The translations under genes and the position numbers were made by a program. A stretch of 64,000 nt of DNA from Dehalococcoidia bacterium. Lineage in GTDB: Bacteria; Chloroflexota; Dehalococcoidia; Lucifugimonadales; UBA2985. Positions 33,691 to 51,297 of the stretch are shown here, piece after piece. How positions within the stretch are numbered: the stretch's first letter is position 1; each line of letters begins with the position of its first letter. Location: the NCBI GenBank assembly GCA_965247535.1, contig OZ252018.1, positions 437,046-501,045 of the forward strand. The letters run 5' to 3'. The notes below the pieces were generated by a model, which saw only the letters and a program-made list of their open reading frames with translations, was not told the origin of the DNA and made no database searches.

Positions 33691-35247
33691 ATGGCCGCTG
33701 AACAAATTGGCCGGGCATGGATGAGGCTCAAAGCCTCGTTGTCGGGAAGAGGAGGCAAGCTTCCCCGTTTGAATGAATACGAGGCTCTAGAATTCTATAA
33801 GGAACGGGACCCGAAAGAAAATTGTGAGACTTCCCCACCGGACGACGAAGCGGTTGGCTTGCACTGTGCTTGGGCGGTTGAATTCTACACGCCTGCGCAC
33901 ATGGACAACCTTGCCAAGAACCTACTCCACTTCAACCGGACAAGCGGCATTCGGGAATACGACGCCGAACACCTGGAAACCTGGGTCAACGAATTGCACC
34001 GAGCTCGCTATGGGGGAGGATGGATCAATCTAGGGATCTTGGAGCGAAAAGGCGAACCCTCAAAATTCTTTGGTACGACTCGCCGGGTAGAATTGCCCCC
34101 TTCGGTCGAATACGCTCTCGCACACACCTTTCAGGTCTCACCGTCAATCGTTTGCATCGCTGTCTGCTTCGTATTCGACGAAGAGTTTTCCTCCGGTTTA
34201 GATAGTACCCTCCGCAGATACAGGGAATCCTTTGCCGAGCCAATCGACACAGGGTTCTCGATCTTTACACCTGAAGTTCAAAAACTTGAAGACATTGGAT
34301 TAATTCGGTCGAAGATCTCGAGCCAATCCACCAATTGGTTCAGGGACAATTTCCCAGGGCTATTTTCCTCCGGACTACTGGGGGGGCATGTACCAGTTTG
34401 CGAATTCATCACACTACGGAAGGCCAGGCCTTTTCCTAAGCGCGAAGTGGATGGTCACCAAGCGCCGCTCTACCTACAGTTACTTGGGTTGAACATTGAC
34501 TGGGACGCGTGGAGATGCACTGATATCCCCGGATTGCACTTTTCTATCCAGAGGCATCGCCGTAGGTCGCCTCTCCGTTACTCTACGTTGTCTGCAAACG
34601 GTCACGACTTCCCTGACCGCGTCAATAGTTATGGCGGTCACAAAGGTCAACTCGCCCGAATATACTACTTGAACAGTGCTATGCCAAATCTACTATGTAT
34701 GTGGGCAGCGTTGGCTTTGCTGGACGTGTTTACGGAGAATCTAAATGGAATCCGCAACTCAATTGAGTTTAGAATCGGAGAAAGCGATAATCCGGTCAAG
34801 AATCTGCAACGACTGAAAGACCACATATCTTCGTTGACTGACGTTGGTGCGGTTTCGGCGGACTTCTGCAGAGACTCGAAGTCCCGGTTATGGACCTTCG
34901 GGCCCATAGCTACATTCGCGCCGTGTATGCCAGAAGTTTACGAAGCCAACGCAACACTGGATGCGGTCTTTAGGCGTGAGATAGCTGAGCGGGCAGTTTG
35001 GCTTCACGATACGGACCTTTCCGTCCGAGACCAATTAATGCAAATGGGCGCGATAATTAATGCGAGCGAGAGCGTTCGACTCCAGAAGACTGTTGCCAAA
35101 CTGACCTGGGTTGTTGTGTTGCTCACGCTAATGGCTGTGGTACTCGCTACGGCGCAATTACTTGACATCAATTGGGGAGACGCCGCGAAGGATTTGGGCA
35201 ACACCCTCGCCGCATTATCAAGAATACTATGGCTTCGAGGATCTTGA
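33691..35247 (+). CDS. Orphan 518-aa protein with a C-terminal transmembrane anchor
   Basis: A long ORF in AT-rich DNA. One hydrophobic helix sits near the C-terminus (LTWVVVLLTLMAVVLATAQLL). No motif recognised. Confidence 0.6.
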   Translation: MAAEQIGRAWMRLKASLSGRGGKLPRLNEYEALEFYKERDPKENCETSPPDDEAVGLHCAWAVEFYTPAHMDNLAKNLLHFNRTSGIREYDAEHLETWVNELHRARYGGGWINLGILERKGEPSKFFGTTRRVELPPSVEYALAHTFQVSPSIVCIAVCFVFDEEFSSGLDSTLRRYRESFAEPIDTGFSIFTPEVQKLEDIGLIRSKISSQSTNWFRDNFPGLFSSGLLGGHVPVCEFITLRKARPFPKREVDGHQAPLYLQLLGLNIDWDAWRCTDIPGLHFSIQRHRRRSPLRYSTLSANGHDFPDRVNSYGGHKGQLARIYYLNSAMPNLLCMWAALALLDVFTENLNGIRNSIEFRIGESDNPVKNLQRLKDHISSLTDVGAVSADFCRDSKSRLWTFGPIATFAPCMPEVYEANATLDAVFRREIAERAVWLHDTDLSVRDQLMQMGAIINASESVRLQKTVAKLTWVVVLLTLMAVVLATAQLLDINWGDAAKDLGNTLAALSRILWLRGS

Positions 35248-40287: not shown

Positions 40288-40362
40288 TGGCTCCCCGAGT
40301 AGGATTCGAACCTACGACCTAGCGGTTAACAGCCGCCCGCTCTACCGCTGAGCTATCGGGGA
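40288..40362 (-). tRNA. tRNA-Asn (anticodon GTT), CCA encoded
   Basis: The minus strand reads TCCCCGATAGCTCAGCGGTAGAGCGGGCGGCTGTTAACCGCTAGGTCGTAGGTTCGAATCCTACTCGGGGAGCCA. Confidence 0.9.
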
Positions 40363-40518
40363 TTGACGACGCGGAGGTACGGCGGTCTCGCGCGGTGTCC
40401 GTTCCTCCGTCCAACTGCGGATTATAGCACTGCAGCTGTGGGGCAACAAGGCGCGCTCGGTGCAGCGCGATCGCGGCCTGCCGCGGGCACGCGCCGAAGG
40501 TTGGGCTCGCCGGCCGCG

Positions 40519-41214
40519 ATGACTCGAGACGCGATACGGGCTATAATTGGTCTTCGACCTGCCCGGGGGAAGGCATACTTGTCACTCTCAGCTATAAGGG
40601 ACTTCATAACGGACATTCTCGAGACCGTGTCGCTGGCTCTCGTGATCTTCTTTCTGCTCCAGTCCTCGGTGCGCAACTACCGGGTGGAGCTCTCCAGCAT
40701 GGAGCCGACCCTTTCTCACGAGGACAGGCTGATCGTGAACAAGCTGGTCTACTTCAATCTGGACGCGGAGGCACTGGACCGCCTGGTGCCCTTCTGGGAC
40801 ATCTGGGAGGAGGACAACCTGCTGTACCCATTCCATGACCCCCAGCGCGCGGAGGTGATCGTATTCCAGTATCCTTATGATCCAACCAGGGACTTCGTGA
40901 AGAGAGTTATCGGTCTGCCGGGCGAGACCGTTTCGATCCAGCGCGGCACGGTATACATCGACGGTGAAGTGATCGATGAGCCGTACCTGGCGGAGAGTGG
41001 CCTGGACAACCTGGCTCCGGTGCTGGTCCCGCCCAACAGCTACTTTGTGATGGGCGACAACCGGCGCGGCAGCAGCGATTCGAGGCACTGGGGGCCCGTG
41101 CCAATAGACAACGTCGTGGGGAAGGTGGTGGTGCGATACTGGCCCTTCTCCGAGCTTTCGTTCATACCGGTAGACCCATCGCCGGACGCGTCCGGCGCCA
41201 TTGATAATCGATAG
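40519..41214 (+). CDS. lepB: Signal peptidase I
   Basis: ATG 40519; the longer ORF would overlap tRNA-Asn. Catalytic Ser box SSMEPTL, plus VKRVIGLPGE and GDNRRGSSDSRHWGPV. Confidence 0.9.
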   Translation: MTRDAIRAIIGLRPARGKAYLSLSAIRDFITDILETVSLALVIFFLLQSSVRNYRVELSSMEPTLSHEDRLIVNKLVYFNLDAEALDRLVPFWDIWEEDNLLYPFHDPQRAEVIVFQYPYDPTRDFVKRVIGLPGETVSIQRGTVYIDGEVIDEPYLAESGLDNLAPVLVPPNSYFVMGDNRRGSSDSRHWGPVPIDNVVGKVVVRYWPFSELSFIPVDPSPDASGAIDNR

Positions 41215-41244
41215 CGCGTTGGTTAGAATCGGCGATACGGCGAG

Positions 41245-41321
41245 GGGCCGTTAGCTCAGCCTGGCAGAGCTCCGGACTTTTAATCCGGGAGTCCAGGGTT
41301 CGAATCCCTGACGGCCCACCA
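41245..41321 (+). tRNA. tRNA-Lys (anticodon TTT), CCA encoded
   Basis: GGGCCGTTAGCTCAGCCTGGCAGAGCTCCGGACTTTTAATCCGGGAGTCCAGGGTTCGAATCCCTGACGGCCCACCA. Confidence 0.9.
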
Positions 41322-41330
41322 ACGGCAAGA

Positions 41331-41376
41331 GTAGATAGAACCGTCTTCGAGATGTGGCTTGGCGGACTGTGAGCCA
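41331..41376 (-). repeat. Inverted partial copy of the tRNA-flank repeat (second half of the unit)
   Basis: The reverse complement tggctcacagtccgccaagccacatctcgaagacggttctatctac aligns to 35365-35412. Confidence 0.65.
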
Positions 41377-41385
41377 ACATTCGCA

Positions 41386-43426
41386 CTTCACAAAAGACAC
41401 GAATTACTCAGGAACTCGTGGGAAGTGGACTTGAAGCCAGCCCACAGTGAGAGGTGACCGCCTACTGCCATTGACACCTCTCGAGCACATGCTTTCGCAA
41501 CTGCCCAGTGCCTGATCACGGCTTGATAGTCTAATGGAACTTCTCTAGTATGAAATAAACTGATGGAGATGACCTTGCTGTCTTCTCCCAGAGGTGTACG
41601 CCTCTGTTGGTAGTCGGGTCCGGTCAGTAGAGGTCTGATCCACGGAGATTTCGCTAACGACGGAGGGTTGACGGCCATGACCATATCAATATCAGTACCT
41701 GGGCCAACCGAACCCTGCAACATCGAATTGGCTCCCGGCGAGATTCTGTACGTGCTCGGTGCAAACGGGACCGGTAAGTCAGCCCTTGTCCACCGTCTGA
41801 ATTCTGATCATAGGACAAAGTCACACTGGGTTCCTCCACATCGTCGGACGTGGTTGCAGTCTGGTGGGTCTAACTTAACGGCGGCCGACAAGCAAGAGCA
41901 AGAAACCAATCTGCAAAGCCTGGCCACCCGACCTGACGCTCGATGGATGGATCACAATCCTGAAGTTCGGGTGAATATGGCAATATTTGATCTGATCCAC
42001 AAGCGAAGCCAGCTGAGTCAGGAAATAGCCGACGCATTCCGTGCGGGAGATAAGGCGCGGGGACAGGAATTGATAGGGCGTGACGAAGATCCATTAGTGG
42101 CCCTGAGCGGTTTGTTGACTAATGCCAACTTGCCCTTCGAATTCTCAGTAGACAGGAACGCAACGATCGTCGTGACCAAGGCCGGGATAGAACCATATAG
42201 TGCGGCAGAGATGTCGGATGGAGAACGTAACGCTTTGCTGCTGGCCGCGGAGGTACTGACGGTACCTGCAGACACATTAATCCTGATCGACGAGCCCGAG
42301 CAGCATTTGCATAGGTCGATAGTGTCGCCGCTTCTCAATGGCCTCTTTTCCAAGAGGCCCGACTGCATGTTCGTAGTGTCCACTCACGAATTGACGCTGC
42401 CTCCCGACAATCCAGCATCCAAGATATTGCTTGTCAGGAGTTGCACTTATCAAGGTGGCACCGCTGTGGCCTGGGACGTTGATCTGGTAAACTCACCGAT
42501 CGAGATCGACGAGGACCTAAAGACGGATGTCTTGGGTGCCCGACGCACCGTGGTATTTGTGGAGGGGGAAAGAAGCAGCCTAGATACGCCTCTCTACAGC
42601 TTGATTTCCCCTTGTGTATCAGTCATTCCCCGAGGAACGCGGAAGTCTGTAGAAGATGCGGTAAAGAGCATCCGTGCGTCAAGTGCACTGCACCGCGTCA
42701 AGGCTTACGGACTCGTGGATAGCGACGGTCGAAACACTGCCGAAGACGTAAGCGAACTGAGGGAAGAGGGCATCTACCCGATCGAGGTCTACTCAGTCGA
42801 GTCCATTTACTTCGATCAGAGGCTCCAAGAGGAAGTGGCCAAGAGACGGACCAACCTAGCCGGCGATAATGTTTCGTCTCGCCTGGAACCTGCAAGCGCC
42901 GCGGCGATAAACGCAATCAGGAACAGTGCCGATCATCTAGCCAGGCTTGCAGCGGGACGCAAGCTACGGGAGGCAATGCTGAAACACCTGCCAAACCCAA
43001 AGACATCCCCCCTAGACCAACCAATTCAGATCGATATGGATGCTCCGGGCATACTGCAACAAGAGCGCCAGGCGCTAGATGAGTTGATTGATGCCAACGA
43101 CCTTGGCGCCATCATACGACAATATCCAATTAGGAGGACCAGTGCTCTCGATCATATCTCGAAGCACCTTGGTCTCGACGACGAGAAAGAGTACGCAAGG
43201 GCGGTTCTCCAACTTCTGAAAGACGACGAAGACATGCTTAAGCATGTGAGAGAACTAATCGGGCCATTGCCGAGCGATATCCTCTCAGATGACTGAGTCC
43301 GAGTGCGATAACCGTGATCCCACGAAACGTCCTGTCATACAGGCGTAGCCTGGTTCGGTCTCTTCCGGTGATTCTGTCGTCTTCAGGAATCTCAAGCGGG
43401 CGAATTAGCTGCCCCTAACATTCGCA
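41386..43426 (+). mobile_element. Candidate inserted ~2-kb cassette carrying the ATPase-Toprim gene
   Basis: AACATTCGCA occurs at 41376-41385 and again at 43417-43426 as a direct repeat. The interior is AT-rich. It sits beside tRNA-Lys between repeat-family copies. Confidence 0.45.
41668..43296 (+). CDS. ABC-type ATPase fused to a Toprim/DUF4435-like domain (OLD-family or fused PARIS AriA-AriB-like defence candidate)
   Basis: Walker A GANGTGKS, signature-like MSDGERNALLLA, Walker B LILIDEPEQHLH, H-loop VVSTHE. These are followed by VVFVEGERSSLD and AYGLVDSDGRN (Toprim E and DxD). Confidence 0.7.
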   Translation: MTAMTISISVPGPTEPCNIELAPGEILYVLGANGTGKSALVHRLNSDHRTKSHWVPPHRRTWLQSGGSNLTAADKQEQETNLQSLATRPDARWMDHNPEVRVNMAIFDLIHKRSQLSQEIADAFRAGDKARGQELIGRDEDPLVALSGLLTNANLPFEFSVDRNATIVVTKAGIEPYSAAEMSDGERNALLLAAEVLTVPADTLILIDEPEQHLHRSIVSPLLNGLFSKRPDCMFVVSTHELTLPPDNPASKILLVRSCTYQGGTAVAWDVDLVNSPIEIDEDLKTDVLGARRTVVFVEGERSSLDTPLYSLISPCVSVIPRGTRKSVEDAVKSIRASSALHRVKAYGLVDSDGRNTAEDVSELREEGIYPIEVYSVESIYFDQRLQEEVAKRRTNLAGDNVSSRLEPASAAAINAIRNSADHLARLAAGRKLREAMLKHLPNPKTSPLDQPIQIDMDAPGILQQERQALDELIDANDLGAIIRQYPIRRTSALDHISKHLGLDDEKEYARAVLQLLKDDEDMLKHVRELIGPLPSDILSDD

Positions 43427-43439
43427 GTACAGTACACTT

Positions 43440-43525
43440 GGTCCACCAGAAGAGGCTCGAAATCCCCTTAAGGGTCGCGGTGCCAAGGATCACAGTGCCA
43501 CCATCAACTCAAACTTGGTACTGCG
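43440..43525 (+). repeat. Full-length copy of the tRNA-flank repeat family
   Basis: ggtccaccagaagaggctcgaaatccccttaagggtcgcggtgccaaggatcacagtgccaccatcaactcaaacttggtac aligns to the units at 35319-35635. Confidence 0.6.
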
Positions 43526-43831
43526 TTCAGTCAAGTAAGGCCCACCATCGGTCACGGGTGGCCAAGACGCGCCCTCGACAGAGGTTCAGCGCCGTGCCCT
43601 ACGCCTCAGGGGCCGGAGGTGTGCGCCACAGGAAGGTTCTGCCGAGGCAACTTCCCAAATGAAGTCGATCCCCCGACGAGTAGGTAAACTTTGCTAAGGC
43701 AAGCTGCGGCCACATAGCCGGTTGCTGGTCGGATGAGGGCATAGCCTGTACGATGCAGGAGAGGCTGGGACTCGCAACACGACGGCACGACCTCCAGTTG
43801 CGCCGCAGGATCACTGGATTGGGAGGTACCG

Positions 43832-44575
43832 ATGAAGAATTCTGAGCAACACGACTACTCCGCCGCAGAGTGGCAAGCTCGCGTGGATCTGGCGGCTGCA
43901 TATCGCCTAACTGACCACTTCGGCATGACAACGCTCATCTACAACCACATTACGTCGCGTGTCCCGGGCACGGAAGACCAGTTCCTCATCAATGAGTACG
44001 GTCTCGGGTACGACGAGGTCACAGCGTCCAACCTGGTCAGGATCGACATGGACGGGAACATTCTCGACGAAGGCGATCACCGTATCAACGTCACCGGCTA
44101 CGTCATCCACTCAGCGGTCCACGCGGCAAGGCACGACGTGACCTGCGTGATGCACACCCATACGCCCTACGGAATGGCCGTATCGGTGATGGCGACGGGC
44201 CTGCTGCCACTTCAGCAAGATGGCTACCAATTCCATGAGCGCATTGCCTACCATGAGTTCGAGGGAGTAGCCGTCGATATCGATGAGCGAGAACGGCTCG
44301 TGACCGACCTCGGCGACAAGAATGCGATGATAATGCGCAATCACGGCCTGCTGACCGTGGGCCGCTCCGTCGCTGAGGCATGGCTCCGGATGTGGCAGCT
44401 TGAGCAGGCCTGCAAGGTCCAGGTCCTGGCTCAATCGACTGGCCAACCCATCCGCCAGGCGCCTGTGCCCGCCATTGAGAAGACAGCTGCCCTGTCCGAC
44501 AACGAGCCCGTGGCCCTGGAGTGGGCCTGGCTTCTGCGGACAATCGACCGGAAGGACTCGTCGTACAGGACGTAG
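43832..44575 (+). CDS. Class II aldolase/adducin-family protein
   Basis: 247 aa with the HTHTPYGMA metal-binding segment. Confidence 0.85.
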   Translation: MKNSEQHDYSAAEWQARVDLAAAYRLTDHFGMTTLIYNHITSRVPGTEDQFLINEYGLGYDEVTASNLVRIDMDGNILDEGDHRINVTGYVIHSAVHAARHDVTCVMHTHTPYGMAVSVMATGLLPLQQDGYQFHERIAYHEFEGVAVDIDERERLVTDLGDKNAMIMRNHGLLTVGRSVAEAWLRMWQLEQACKVQVLAQSTGQPIRQAPVPAIEKTAALSDNEPVALEWAWLLRTIDRKDSSYRT

Positions 44576-47741: not shown

Positions 47742-48824
47742 TCAGCAGAACGGCAGCCCGAGCCGGTCGATGTCATTGGAGGACACTCGTAGAAGCCCCC
47801 TGGGGACGCACCCGGTCAGTGGGTTATCGGAGAGGTATAGGCCTCTAAGGTTGGAGAGGGTCGCAAGCTCCTGAGGAAACTCACCGCTCAACTGATTGTA
47901 ACCGAGGTACAACCCTTCGAGACTGGCTAGCTTGCCCAACGCGGGCGGAATCTCGCCACTCAGCTCGTTGCCTTCGAGGTTGAGCCCCAGCAAATCAGTC
48001 AAGTTGCCCAGCTCCGGCGGAATCTCACCGCTAAACTCGTTCCTATTGAGGTACAGCTTCTTCAGATTAGCGAGGCTGCCCAGGTACGCCGGAATCTCGC
48101 CGCTCAGCTGGTTGAAGGAGAGATTCAAGCTTTGCAGGCCGATCAGGCTGCTCAACTCCGGCGGTATTGTCCCGCTCAACTCGTTGCTCGCAAGAGACAG
48201 CCGCTCAAGGCTGGTCAGGCTCCCCAGCTCTGCCGGCAGCTCCCCGCCCAGTTCGTTGAAGTCCAAGCGTAGCCAATGGAGGCTGGCCAGCCCGCCGAGT
48301 TCAGGGGGTATGTCACCGCTCAACCGGTTAGACGTCAGCCAAAGCGTTCGGAGGCTGGTGAAGTTGCCCAACTGCGGCGGTATCTCTCCGCTCAGCTGAT
48401 TGTCACCGAGGTAAAGCGCCCGCAGGCCGGTGAGGCTTCCGAGCTCAGGAGGAATCTCACCAGTCAACTGATTGCTGAAGAGCGACAGCGCTACAACGCG
48501 GCCGCTTTCGTCCGTGGCCACGCCGTGCCATTCGTCTAAGGGGGCGTCACTCAGCCAGTTGGTGCTGTCAACCCAATTGGCGCCGTCCGTGGAGTTGTAT
48601 AGAGCCAGTAGCGCGGCTCGGTCCGCATCCGTCGGCAACGTAGGCTCGGGTGTCAGAGTAGACGCCGGCACATGAGTCCGCGTTGGTGGAGGCGTAGCGG
48701 TGGGTGCAGCTGTCGCGGTGGGCGAGGGCGACGGTGTTGGAGTCGGGTCCTCGTCGCAGGACGCGAGTAGAAGCGCTGCAGCAGTAGCTATGACGATGGC
48801 AATGAGTCCGGCTGCCTTACGCAT
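47742..48824 (-). CDS. Lipoprotein with plant-type leucine-rich repeats (one LRR block, ~10 repeats)
   Basis: Lipobox LLLASC, TP-rich linker, N-cap ADRAALLALYNSTDGANW..W.GV, 24-residue repeats LxxLxxLxLxxNxLSGxIPxELGx, C-cap NPLTGCVPRGL...LGLPFC. Confidence 0.9.
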   Translation of the reverse strand: MRKAAGLIAIVIATAAALLLASCDEDPTPTPSPSPTATAAPTATPPPTRTHVPASTLTPEPTLPTDADRAALLALYNSTDGANWVDSTNWLSDAPLDEWHGVATDESGRVVALSLFSNQLTGEIPPELGSLTGLRALYLGDNQLSGEIPPQLGNFTSLRTLWLTSNRLSGDIPPELGGLASLHWLRLDFNELGGELPAELGSLTSLERLSLASNELSGTIPPELSSLIGLQSLNLSFNQLSGEIPAYLGSLANLKKLYLNRNEFSGEIPPELGNLTDLLGLNLEGNELSGEIPPALGKLASLEGLYLGYNQLSGEFPQELATLSNLRGLYLSDNPLTGCVPRGLLRVSSNDIDRLGLPFC

Positions 48825-49041: not shown

Positions 49042-51297
49042 CTAGCAGAACGGCAGGCCGAGGCGGTCGATGTCGTTGGAGGACACTCGCAGAAGCCCCC
49101 TGGGGATGCAGCCGGTCAGTGGGTTATCGGAGATGTACAGGCTTCTCAGGTTGGAGAGGGTTGCGAGCTCTTGGGGGATTTCCCCGCTCAACTGATTGTA
49201 ACCGAGGTACAACCATTCAAGGCCGGCTAGCTTGCCCAGCTCCCGTGGAATCTCGCCACTCAGCTCGTTGCCTTCCAGGTTCAGCCCCTGCAGATAAGTC
49301 AAGTTGCCCAGCTCCGGCGGAATCTCTCCGCTCAGCTCGTTCCCGGAAAGGTCAATCGAATGTAGGTAGGCCAGCCTGCCCAGTTCCGGCGGAATCTCGC
49401 CGCTGAGCTCGTTCTCGGAAAGGTCAATCGACCAGAGGTAGGCTAGCCTGCCTAGCGCAGTCGGCATTGCCCCGCTTAGCTGGTTTCCAGAGAGAAACAG
49501 CTGCCCTAGGCTGGGAAGGTTGCCCAACTCTGGCGGTATCTCTCCGCTCAACTCGTTGCTGTGGAGATACAGCCTCCGCAAGTTTGGGAGTCCGCCCAAT
49601 GCCGCCGGCAGGCTGCCGCTCAACTCGTTGTAGGCGAGATTCAGCGTCTGCAGGTTGACGAGGCTGCCCAACTCCGAGGGTATCTCACCTGTCAACTCGT
49701 TGCTGCCGAGACTAAGCTTTTTCAGCTTGACGAGGTTGCCAAGCTCCGGCGGAAGCTCGCCCGTCAGCCCATTGCGGGAGAAGGCCAACTCCTCCAGGTT
49801 GGAGAGGTTTCCAATCCCCCGCGGCAATCTTCCACTAAGGTTTTTGTCGGAGAGGTCTAGCTTAACAACGCGGCCGCTGTCGTCCGTGGTGACACCGTGC
49901 CATTGTCCCAGAGGCGCGTCGCTGAGCCAGTTTGTGTTGTCGGTCCAGTTCGGGCCGTCCGTGGCGAAGTATAACGCCACCAGCGGCTGCCTGTCAGAGT
50001 GGCAGTAGGCCAAGCCAAGCTCATCAAAATCGTCGAAATAGATCCTCAGACCATTGGGTATGCACCCGGTTAGCCGGTTGTCGGAGAGGTACAGATCCTC
50101 TAACCTGGAGAGTCTACCCAGTTCCGGAGGTATATTTCCGCGCAGCTGGTTTTGGCGGAGGTTCAGTTCCCTCAAATTGGACAAATCTCCCAGCGAAAGT
50201 GGAATCTCACCGCCCAGCTGGTTGTCTGGGAGGTTCAAGGACTCCAGCATTGAAATGTTCCCCAGTTCCGGTGGGATGTCACCGCTCAGGTAATTGTCTC
50301 CGAGGTCCAACTGCCTGAGGTTGGCGAGTCTTCCCAGCTCCGGCGGAATCTCGCCTGTCAATTGGTTGAGAGAGAGATCCAAGATTCTCAGTCTGGCGAG
50401 GTTGCCCAATTCCGGCGGTATCTCTCCGCTCAGCTGGTTCCCCAAGAGTTTCAGCCATAGAAGGTTGGACAGACTGCCGAGCTCCGGCGGTATAGGTCCG
50501 CTCAACTCGTTCCCAAAGAGGTTCAGCCATTGAAGGTTGGCTAGACCGCCAAACTCCGGTGGTATCTCTCCGCTCAACCGGTTGTCCGAGAGGTACAGGC
50601 CTTCGAGACTCGACAGGCTGCCGAGCTCCGCAGGAATTGCCCCGCCCAGGTCGTTCAGGCCGAGACTTAGCCTTCGCAGATTGACGAGGTTGCCCAGTTC
50701 CGGCGGTATCTCTCCGCTCAGCTGGTTGCTCCTGAGGTTAAGCGACTCCAGGTTGGAAAGGTTACCTAGTTCCGGCGGAATAGGTCCGCTCAACTCGTTC
50801 CCCAAGAGGTGCAGCGACTCCAGGTTGGAAAGGTTACCTAGTTCCGGCGGAATCTCTCCGCTCAACTGGTTGAACCACAGGCCTAGGCCTTTGAGGTTAG
50901 AGAGGCTGCCCAGCTCCCGGGGAATCTCTCCGCTCAGTCGGTGCTTGGAGAGGAGCAGATCTACAACGCGGCCGCTGTCGTCCGTGTTGACGCCGAACCA
51001 ATCTCCCAGGGGCGCTTCGGTGAGCCAGTTGGTGTCGTATCTCCAGTTGGGGCCATCCGTTGCGTTGTAGAGCGCGATCAGCGCGGCCCGGTCCGCGTCC
51101 GCCGGCACCGGAGTCCACGTGGGCGGAGGCGTTGGTGTGGCCTCAGGTGTACTCGTGGGAGCCGCAGTTGCAGTGGGTGCTGCTGTCGCGGTGGGCGAGG
51201 GCGACGGTGTTGGTGTCGGGTCCTCGGCGCAGGACGCGAGTAGAAGCGCTGCAGCAGCAGCTATGACGATGGCAATGAGTCCGGCTGCCTTACGCAT
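49042..51297 (-). CDS. Lipoprotein with plant-type leucine-rich repeats (two cap-LRR-cap blocks; 13+11 repeats by my count)
   Basis: Same architecture as 47742..48824. The first ~45 residues are nearly identical to that gene. Confidence 0.9.
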   Translation of the reverse strand: MRKAAGLIAIVIAAAAALLLASCAEDPTPTPSPSPTATAAPTATAAPTSTPEATPTPPPTWTPVPADADRAALIALYNATDGPNWRYDTNWLTEAPLGDWFGVNTDDSGRVVDLLLSKHRLSGEIPRELGSLSNLKGLGLWFNQLSGEIPPELGNLSNLESLHLLGNELSGPIPPELGNLSNLESLNLRSNQLSGEIPPELGNLVNLRRLSLGLNDLGGAIPAELGSLSSLEGLYLSDNRLSGEIPPEFGGLANLQWLNLFGNELSGPIPPELGSLSNLLWLKLLGNQLSGEIPPELGNLARLRILDLSLNQLTGEIPPELGRLANLRQLDLGDNYLSGDIPPELGNISMLESLNLPDNQLGGEIPLSLGDLSNLRELNLRQNQLRGNIPPELGRLSRLEDLYLSDNRLTGCIPNGLRIYFDDFDELGLAYCHSDRQPLVALYFATDGPNWTDNTNWLSDAPLGQWHGVTTDDSGRVVKLDLSDKNLSGRLPRGIGNLSNLEELAFSRNGLTGELPPELGNLVKLKKLSLGSNELTGEIPSELGSLVNLQTLNLAYNELSGSLPAALGGLPNLRRLYLHSNELSGEIPPELGNLPSLGQLFLSGNQLSGAMPTALGRLAYLWSIDLSENELSGEIPPELGRLAYLHSIDLSGNELSGEIPPELGNLTYLQGLNLEGNELSGEIPRELGKLAGLEWLYLGYNQLSGEIPQELATLSNLRSLYISDNPLTGCIPRGLLRVSSNDIDRLGLPFC

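Follow-up and report, generated by a model that had tools for sequence, protein, structure and literature searches.

The 64,000-nucleotide stretch of a Dehalococcoidia bacterium genome that we analysed (contig OZ252018.1, positions 437,046 to 501,045; hereafter the window) carries a gene, ariAB, whose product we identify, with a probability of about 0.8, as a merged (fused) PARIS protein, AriAB, with an AriA-like ABC ATPase half and an AriB-like Toprim domain in one polypeptide. Merged PARIS is an already known kind of protein, and what is new here is the Dehalococcoidia copy of it. The gene is not native to its site in the window. It is carried in a small unit bounded by two repeats, R and R', within a replaceable hotspot.

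A preliminary description of the window had reported an open reading frame (ORF) of 542 aa at 41668-43296 on the plus strand. The ORF is indeed there and intact when counted from TTG, but its start codon is better placed elsewhere. The Shine-Dalgarno sequence GGAGGG (41662-41667) abuts TTG 41668 and has ATG 41677 9 nt downstream of it. Homologues are 537-539 aa long, and the identical database protein, P0001, has 539 aa. Because of this spacing and these lengths we prefer ATG 41677, and the true ariAB coding sequence most likely runs from 41677 to 43296 (plus strand; 539 aa and a stop codon), with TTG 41668 as an unlikely alternative start. Residues are numbered throughout on the 539-aa form unless the 542-aa form is stated.

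The ORF had been proposed to encode either an OLD-family or a fused PARIS protein, to be told apart by Pfam and PADLOC searches. In PADLOC, the fused-AriAB profile PDLC02982 was matched with E=9e-58 and 194 bits, residues 162-521 aligning to positions 200-551 of the 570 in the profile. A second AriAB profile (PDLC02981) was matched at 9e-12 and the AriA profile at 2e-9. In Pfam, AAA_21 (6e-10, 40.1 bits, cut-off 27), ABC_tran (31.1 bits, cut-off 25) and DUF4435 (4.9e-9, 36.7 bits, cut-off 27; residues 293-396 of the 542-aa form) were all above their cut-offs, and Toprim_OLD (PF20469) gave no Pfam match to the protein at E<=1. The AriAB profile and DUF4435 thus speak for the fused PARIS half of the proposal, and the lack of a Toprim_OLD match speaks against its OLD half. 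The C-terminal half, on whose Toprim or DUF4435 character the proposal depended, carries DUF4435.

We found in the translation every motif that had been listed for the protein: Walker A (GANGTGKS), the signature (MSDGERNALLLA), Walker B (LILIDEPEQHLH) and the H-loop (VVSTHE) of the ATPase, and VVFVEGERSSLD and AYGLVDSDGRN of the Toprim part. Their conservation was followed in an alignment of 34 homologues with identity down to 43%. Walker A residues G28, N30, G31, G33, K34 and S35, the signature S180-D-G-E-R184, Walker B D205 and E206 and the H-loop H237 were invariant, as were E296-G297, D303, D348xD350 and E375 of the Toprim. Since they are invariant in all 34 homologues, the motifs are not there by chance.

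These matches divide the protein into parts, all encoded on the plus strand. The AriA-like ABC ATPase half (residues 1-245, 41677..42411) was recognised by AAA_21 and ABC_tran, by a profile match to AriA 8ux9 and by its invariant residues. It contains Walker A at 41758-41781, the ABC signature at 42214-42228, Walker B at 42277-42300 and the H-loop His at 42385-42387, and the structural model places a helical insertion at residues 46-150 (41812-42126). The AriB-like Toprim core (DUF4435; residues 289-380, 42541..42816) was assigned from Pfam, the invariant acids and Foldseek. By the alignment its acids are E296 (42562-42564), D348xD350 (42718-42726) and E375 (42799-42801). Residues 381-539 (42817..43293) form a C-terminal helical domain according to the secondary structure of the model; it stands out, along with the insertion, in the ratio of nonsynonymous to synonymous substitution rates (dN/dS) calculated for each domain.

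For the whole gene, dN/dS between the window copy and copies at 98, 93, 90 and 83% identity was 0.26, 0.36, 0.33 and 0.18, and ariAB is maintained under purifying selection. Constraint is strongest in the Toprim and ATPase cores. Evolution is fastest in the insertion (residues 46-150) and in the C-terminal helical domain, and these two are candidate specificity regions. We also observed that synonymous divergence from one of the loci compared with the window (these carry L numbers), L001, is ~0.32 in the first 150 codons (41677-42126) and 0.03-0.11 in the remaining ones. This unevenness suggests recombination between ariAB alleles.

Next to the profiles stands a structural comparison. The full-length AlphaFold model (pLDDT, predicted local distance difference test score, of 84) had ABC heads as its top fold matches, namely PtuA, Rad50 and SMC. 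Since these heads swamped the search, the C-terminal domain was modelled alone (pLDDT 84, predicted template modelling score 0.77). With this model, Foldseek placed AriB (8v46_D) at rank 1 of 350,542 PDB chains with a probability of 0.97, followed at ranks 2-3 by the C-terminal Toprim region of Xanthomonas OLD (6njw, 6njx). The comparison with AriA/AriB and OLD that had been recommended therefore puts AriB ahead, at weak scores. For the ATPase half, the family profile aligned to the solved AriA (8ux9, 8v45) over AriA residues 306-425, that is the signature, Walker B and H-loop, with E=3e-8.

Several observations weigh against the identification as PARIS. The best PADLOC stretch covers residues 162-521 only, and the N-terminal ~160 aa are divergent. 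The fold match to AriB 8v46_D is weak (E=5e-3, TM 0.33-0.35, root-mean-square deviation ~15 Å), and the C-terminal half, searched against all PDB chains with phmmer and with a 14-sequence profile, gave no match to B185 AriB at E<=10. Such a lack of sequence similarity accords with a large distance of the merged clades, but the link to the characterised AriB runs via family profiles and fold only. Moreover, Walker A is separated from the conserved C-terminal ATPase block by ~85 aa here vs ~260 aa in AriA, so the fused protein lacks ~175 aa of the AriA insertion. Most of the coiled-coil and trigger-binding scaffold seen in the solved complex is therefore missing, and its hexamer architecture may not apply. 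Our literature search found no experimental or functional study of a merged PARIS, the tRNA specificity is not readable from the sequence, and the host is uncultured.

Genome surveys use the label PARIS_II_merge, which we take to be the DefenseFinder label for merged PARIS. In E. coli, AriB is sequestered by an AriA hexamer. Fused PARIS forms have been reported, as the preliminary description stated: merged ariAB makes up two of the 11 PARIS clades, by a single derivation from clade 9 (PMC11464382). Equally correct was its statement that E. coli AriB cleaves tRNA-Lys; the enzyme is a two-metal Toprim tRNase with the catalytic acids E26, D30, D88, E90 and E122 (PMC11464382), and its targets in E. 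coli are tRNA-Lys(UUU), Thr(UGU) and Asn(GUU) (PMC12409363).

The N-terminal half of AriAB is an AriA-type ABC ATPase, which by analogy would be both sensor and restrainer. A short beta-hairpin linker connects it to a full AriB-type Toprim (DUF4435) nuclease that includes the helical C-terminal domain. As in the PARIS of E. coli B185, the ATPase part would keep the nuclease inactive inside an oligomer until a phage protein triggers it; in E. coli this role falls to anti-restriction proteins, Ocr for instance, or to Ptr1/Ptr2. Binding of the trigger would lead to an ATP-dependent rearrangement allowing pairing of two Toprim domains, and the active dimer would cleave the anticodon stem-loop of particular host tRNAs, which would stop translation and abort the infection. 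We regard tRNA cleavage as the effector activity as roughly an even bet. With both halves in one covalent chain, release of AriB cannot be the means of activation, and a rearrangement within or between the fused subunits would have to take the place of the release seen in E. coli.

We then looked at where the gene lies. ARAGORN and Rfam place tRNA-Lys(UUU) at 41245..41321 on the plus strand, 346 bp upstream of TTG, in agreement with the ~350 bp first given, and ARAGORN places tRNA-Asn(GUU) at 40288..40362 on the minus strand. Compared by blastn with the sister genome L031, the window is 97.3% identical over 40288-41321, from tRNA-Asn as the left limit of the collinear block to exactly the last base of tRNA-Lys, and 98.4% identical again from 43822 on. 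Between these limits lies a variable slot of 2,500 bp (41322..43821), and to its right a class II aldolase/adducin-like gene (43832..44575, plus strand) that is conserved in relatives. In L031 the slot is filled with 2,310 unrelated bp (L031:3681-5990) encoding a 436-aa YopA-domain protein for which PADLOC gave no match, and in the more distant relatives L032/L033 (3640-5260) the aldolase-like gene is preceded by GmrSD_N and HEPN_RiboL-PSP genes. The region that begins at the 3' end of tRNA-Lys is thus a replaceable hotspot, and the tRNAs themselves form part of the conserved backbone. The right-hand remainder of the slot (43436..43821) contains a 13-mer (43539-43551) resembling the 3' end of tRNA-Lys. 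We rejected it as a tRNA-derived att repeat, because it matches at only 12/13 positions, which is at chance level among 17 similar repeat families. Directly beyond tRNA-Asn, L031 has a tyrosine integrase and an AlpA-like gene (L031:696-2478) in place of the transporter gene found there in the window, which makes a second variable slot across the tRNA pair from the first.

Within the slot, ariAB is carried in a unit of 2,060 bp (41376-43435), bounded by R at 41376 and R' at 43417, with the core AACATTCGCAG in common. The R module forms the left unit end (41376..41555, plus strand) and consists of the core AACATTCGCAC and a conserved head, with a sharp homology edge at 41376. It starts AACATTCGCA, and its minus strand has a hairpin and a T-run (41420-41398). 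About 66-85 nt of the head are common to 20 other loci, the remainder being specific to the "long form" of the unit. At the right end, a conserved 3' tail (43297..43416, plus strand), delimited by alignment and junction comparison and ending in GGCGGGCGAATTAGCTGCCCCT, leads into R' (AACATTCGCAGTACAGTAC, 43417..43435, plus strand). R' was found by repeat search; it is oriented like R, with which it has the core in common. The same type of R' occurs in L018, L021 and L022, and the homology with L001 ends at 43435.

Ungapped homology runs from 41376 to 43431/43435 in the 90% copies (L001, L002, L008) and the 98% copy (L006) and stops abruptly on both sides. The same ariAB unit is therefore present with base-sharp ends at three unrelated sites: the window, L001/L002/L008 and L006. 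In L006 it forms part of an array in the order R, 4 kb with a TIR gene and a transposase, R, ariAB, R'. The G+C content is 0.55 across 41-44 kb of the window and 0.62-0.69 in the flanks, which together with the sharp homology borders bears out the early impression of a mobile-looking cassette. To the left of the unit remain 54 nt (41322..41375, plus strand), delimited by blastn and junction comparison. Their last ~45 nt resemble positions +129..+171 of the L018 R module, and the stretch also resembles the sequences immediately before R in L020, L023 and L028; it looks like the remnant of an earlier unit at the slot.

In "short-form" copies (L003, L007, L009) homology begins only at 41550/41559 and covers leader, gene and tail. 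These limits define a conserved 5' leader of 118 nt (41559..41676, plus strand). A consensus scan proposed a sigma-70-like promoter candidate just before it (TTGATA-17-TAGTAT, 41523..41551, plus strand; 9/12 matches), which is a consensus match only. With RNAalifold the leader folded into a long stem (-27.4 kcal/mol, 39 pairs, 4 of them compensatory) on an alignment of 7 sequences of which 5 are near-identical, and the Shine-Dalgarno sequence of ariAB lies in the predicted terminal hairpin loop. The leader is kept even in the copies that lack R and may be regulatory.

Beyond the window the family is large: over 1,300 homologues, each ~537 aa long, are spread among Dehalococcoidia, cyanobacteria, Gemmatimonadota, Bradyrhizobium and Burkholderia, and public records name them only "AAA family ATPase". 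Copies at 65-100% identity were inspected at 11 loci and occupy seven unrelated contexts. Two of the seven are rich in insertion sequences (IS) or defence genes (TIR, DDE transposases and an AAA_21 gene beside a UvrD-PDDEXK gene). Next to the 98%-identical ariAB of L006 (L006:9025-11620), an AAA_21 ATPase of 512 aa is followed by a UvrD-helicase/PDDEXK protein of 981 aa, so that this IS-rich island also holds a second pairing, of an ATPase with a helicase-nuclease.

With a degenerate pattern for R applied to species-representative genomes, we found 20 further loci, 19 in Dehalococcoidia and one in Latescibacterota; part of the apparent invariance of R is imposed by this pattern. R is conserved over ~60-180 nt from a common sharp left edge, after which the loci diverge. 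The pattern had no match in viral contigs or JGI metagenomes. In all, the R/R' loci are L001, L003, L006, L008, L011-L030, L035 and the window, with an R' partner of 15-30 nt. Where the pair was measured, R' lay downstream of R by 1,284 bp (L021), 2,996 bp (L018) and 5,333 bp (L022). AriAB is encoded at none of the 20 further R loci. The accessory cargo examined next to R also matched defence profiles of PADLOC, for a NucC-like PD-DExK nuclease (L021, 4e-21), PDC-S31 (L028, 4e-16), PDC-M11A (L022, 8e-15) and TIR (L006, 3e-9). Several R copies merely adjoin housekeeping genes, so not every R heads cargo.

Most telling is an exchange of cargo observed at the HD/Methyltransf_28 site, compared over L001:5700-7760 and the reverse complement of L035 (3627-5740). 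The two loci match at 96-98% identity as far as R+83, and the match resumes at that level inside the R' core. Between these switch points L001 has ariAB (1,973 bp), and L035 has a segment of 2,022 bp whose reverse transcriptase, on the opposite strand, matches PADLOC RT_UG21 (DRT) at 4e-63. The whole island is absent from this site in L036, where the flanking genes are ~10 bp apart; the junction is rearranged, so L036 gave no clean empty site (attB), and its HD gene is only 78% identical.

The geometry of the unit ends, with a shared core of 11-15 nt and a long one-sided arm as in attL/attR, agrees with site-specific recombination by a trans-acting enzyme. We found no recombinase inside the unit, and no integrase in the ~8-13-kb loci inspected save the unrelated one on the tRNA-Asn side in L031. 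We offer tentatively, as a possibility to which we give rather less than even weight, that an undescribed Dehalococcoidia cassette system, with its integrase in trans, uses R and R' as recombination sites to move and exchange single defence genes among chromosomal slots. The function would then be integron-like, with a primary-sequence site of ~80 nt instead of a folded attC, and the ariAB unit would be one such cassette, though this too we would sooner doubt than assert. R may instead be a mere conserved regulatory or terminator module that is carried along with islands, the exchange proceeding by ordinary homologous recombination. Once cassettes exist, homologous recombination between alleles of one slot explains the L001/L035 swap equally well. 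Some other identities of R were tried and discarded. It belongs to no Rfam family and so is not a known RNA; RNAalifold on 22 R copies gave -0.9 kcal/mol and no covariation, which argues against a structured RNA; and for R on both strands and the tail/R junction the z-scores of +0.35 to -2.05 do not support an attC-like single-stranded DNA fold. R may still be a dif-like, IS200/IS605-like, IS110-like or IS-end sequence, for which an inspection by eye gave no consistent upstream target motif and no transposase in the unit.

Which other proteins could AriAB be? A class 1 OLD-family nuclease like P2 Old, which would respond to another trigger such as RecBCD inhibition and have another nuclease specificity, shares the overall design of ATPase and Toprim in a single polypeptide. 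Xanthomonas OLD directly follows AriB in the fold search, and a weak PADLOC match to ATPase-Toprim_I-B (5.8e-6) lies over Walker B only. OLD itself is reported to cut tRNA anticodon arms (PMC12445682), which makes the functional gap between the two families small. However, Pfam assigns DUF4435 and not Toprim_OLD, the AriAB profile scores 194 bits vs ~23 bits for the OLD-like profile, and AriB ranks above OLD by fold. We therefore reject a classical OLD identity and consider an OLD-type activity unlikely. Gabija was rejected as well, since no GajB adjoins the gene and the GajA match is weak and partial. A housekeeping ABC/SMC-like ATPase of the RecF, SbcC or ABC-F type would account for the transporter and ABC-F ATPases that NCBIfam and PDB sequence searches return at the P-loop and signature, for the Rad50 and SMC heads in the full-length fold search and for the annotation of homologues as ABC transport ATPases in some sources. 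The NCBIfam matches, which were to transporter/ABC-F families only, are all far below their cut-offs and confined to the short P-loop and signature stretches. The homologues show patchy presence and no conserved context, occurring in seven different ones, and the protein has a Toprim/DUF4435 half. Context and domains together refute a housekeeping role, to which we assign next to no probability.

The gene could also be mainly a selfish, toxin-antitoxin-like addiction module that stabilises its own cassette, with phage defence secondary or absent. The depositors of the solved complexes label AriA "antitoxin", the Pfam title of AAA_21 is "putative AbiEii toxin, Type IV TA system", and every copy of the gene stands alone on a small mobile unit. 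We find this improbable, because one fused polypeptide cannot supply the differential stability of toxin and antitoxin needed for addiction, and because the other cargo of R...R' slots matches defence profiles (DRT, NucC-like, PDC candidates), which points to a shared defence theme. Finally, the nearby tRNA-Lys(UUU) and tRNA-Asn(GUU) might be functionally part of the system, for instance as protected or decoy copies of the target, since two of the three E. coli AriB target species (PMC12409363) lie within 1.4 kb upstream of the gene. Against this, both tRNAs stand in the block collinear with L031, a genome that has no ariAB and holds another gene in the slot, and the mobile unit begins 54 nt beyond tRNA-Lys, so that both tRNAs lie outside it. 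At the ten other ariAB loci there is no tRNA within 5-6 kb (L001-L005 scanned, L006-L010 judged by gene context). The 3' flanks of tRNAs are classic insertion hotspots. We reject the functional tie as highly improbable, and the adjacency is best read as incidental, a matter of chance and the usual attraction of islands to tRNA flanks, much as the preliminary description had explained it by the choice of integration site.

Two further loci of the window attracted our attention. A solitary ORF of 518 aa with a C-terminal hydrophobic segment (33691-35247, plus strand) lies in the patch of lowest G+C content in the window (0.51-0.57). It had no Pfam or PADLOC match and may be another accessory or defence gene. 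On the minus strand, 47742-48824 and 49042-51297 encode adjacent paralogous lipoprotein-like proteins of 360 and 751 aa, with Pro/Thr-rich linkers, many plant-type leucine-rich repeats (NQLSGEIPPELGNL) and the same ~40 terminal residues.

The finding extends merged PARIS to uncultured Dehalococcoidia, and the value of the gene itself is modest. As a compact natural fusion of 539 aa it is suited to the question of how a PARIS nuclease that cannot be released is switched on, and it bears on which parts of the large AriA insertion are dispensable. The part that a specialist might find new is the R/R'-bounded defence cassettes that swap their cargo. If R and R' are true recombination sites, they would represent a new way for streamlined, IS-poor genomes to shuffle single defence genes, and R could be used as a tag in the search for new defence genes of this phylum.

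Among known vehicles, tRNA-adjacent islands and defence hotspots are similar in that the slot here likewise begins at the 3' end of tRNA-Lys and varies in content between near-identical genomes. Islands that target tRNAs have an integrase and a tRNA direct repeat; this slot has no integrase ORF and no convincing repeat of that kind, and the repeats that bound the ariAB unit, R and R', are not of tRNA origin. The cassettes of sedentary chromosomal integrons are, like the R/R' units, small units of one or two genes with a bounding repeat, exchangeable defence cargo and no internal recombinase, and their tandem arrangement is matched at least once (L006). They differ in their attC, R having neither a palindromic fold nor the GTTRRRY / RYYYAAC pair, and in being arrayed beside intI, whereas the R/R' units are scattered singly at different chromosomal sites. 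The repeats differ too, since an R/R' unit has a conserved head of ~80 nt at one end and a partner of 15-19 nt at the other.

Among known proteins, class 1 OLD (P2 Old; Xanthomonas and Burkholderia OLD) combines ABC ATPase and Toprim in a single chain as AriAB does, its Toprim fold is the second-best match, and it has a role in defence, with tRNA cleavage reported for P2 Old (PMC12445682). It differs in having Toprim_OLD in place of DUF4435, and PADLOC scores for OLD-like profiles are far lower. GajA of Gabija also joins ATPase and Toprim, and the family profile of AriAB matched it weakly and in part, across the junction of Walker B and Toprim (E~2e-4); no UvrD-type helicase GajB adjoins ariAB in the window, where the gene is solitary in its slot. 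The two-gene PARIS of E. coli B185 (AriA of 464 aa and AriB of ~305 aa; 8ux9, 8v45-8v49) shares the ATPase motifs and the acidic catalytic set, and its AriB is the best structural match of the Toprim-fold C-terminal domain. There, AriA and AriB are separate and AriA carries ~175 aa more insertion, including the coiled-coil and trigger-binding region, whereas here they are fused and AriB is not releasable. From merged PARIS (clades "merged 1/2", Burman et al. 2024, PMC11464382) no structural difference is demonstrable. There too a single polypeptide has an AAA_21-type ABC ATPase followed by DUF4435/Toprim, and the 539 aa of AriAB fit the 570-position AriAB profile with a match spanning 360 residues, as a Dehalococcoidia member with a divergent N-terminal ~160 aa.

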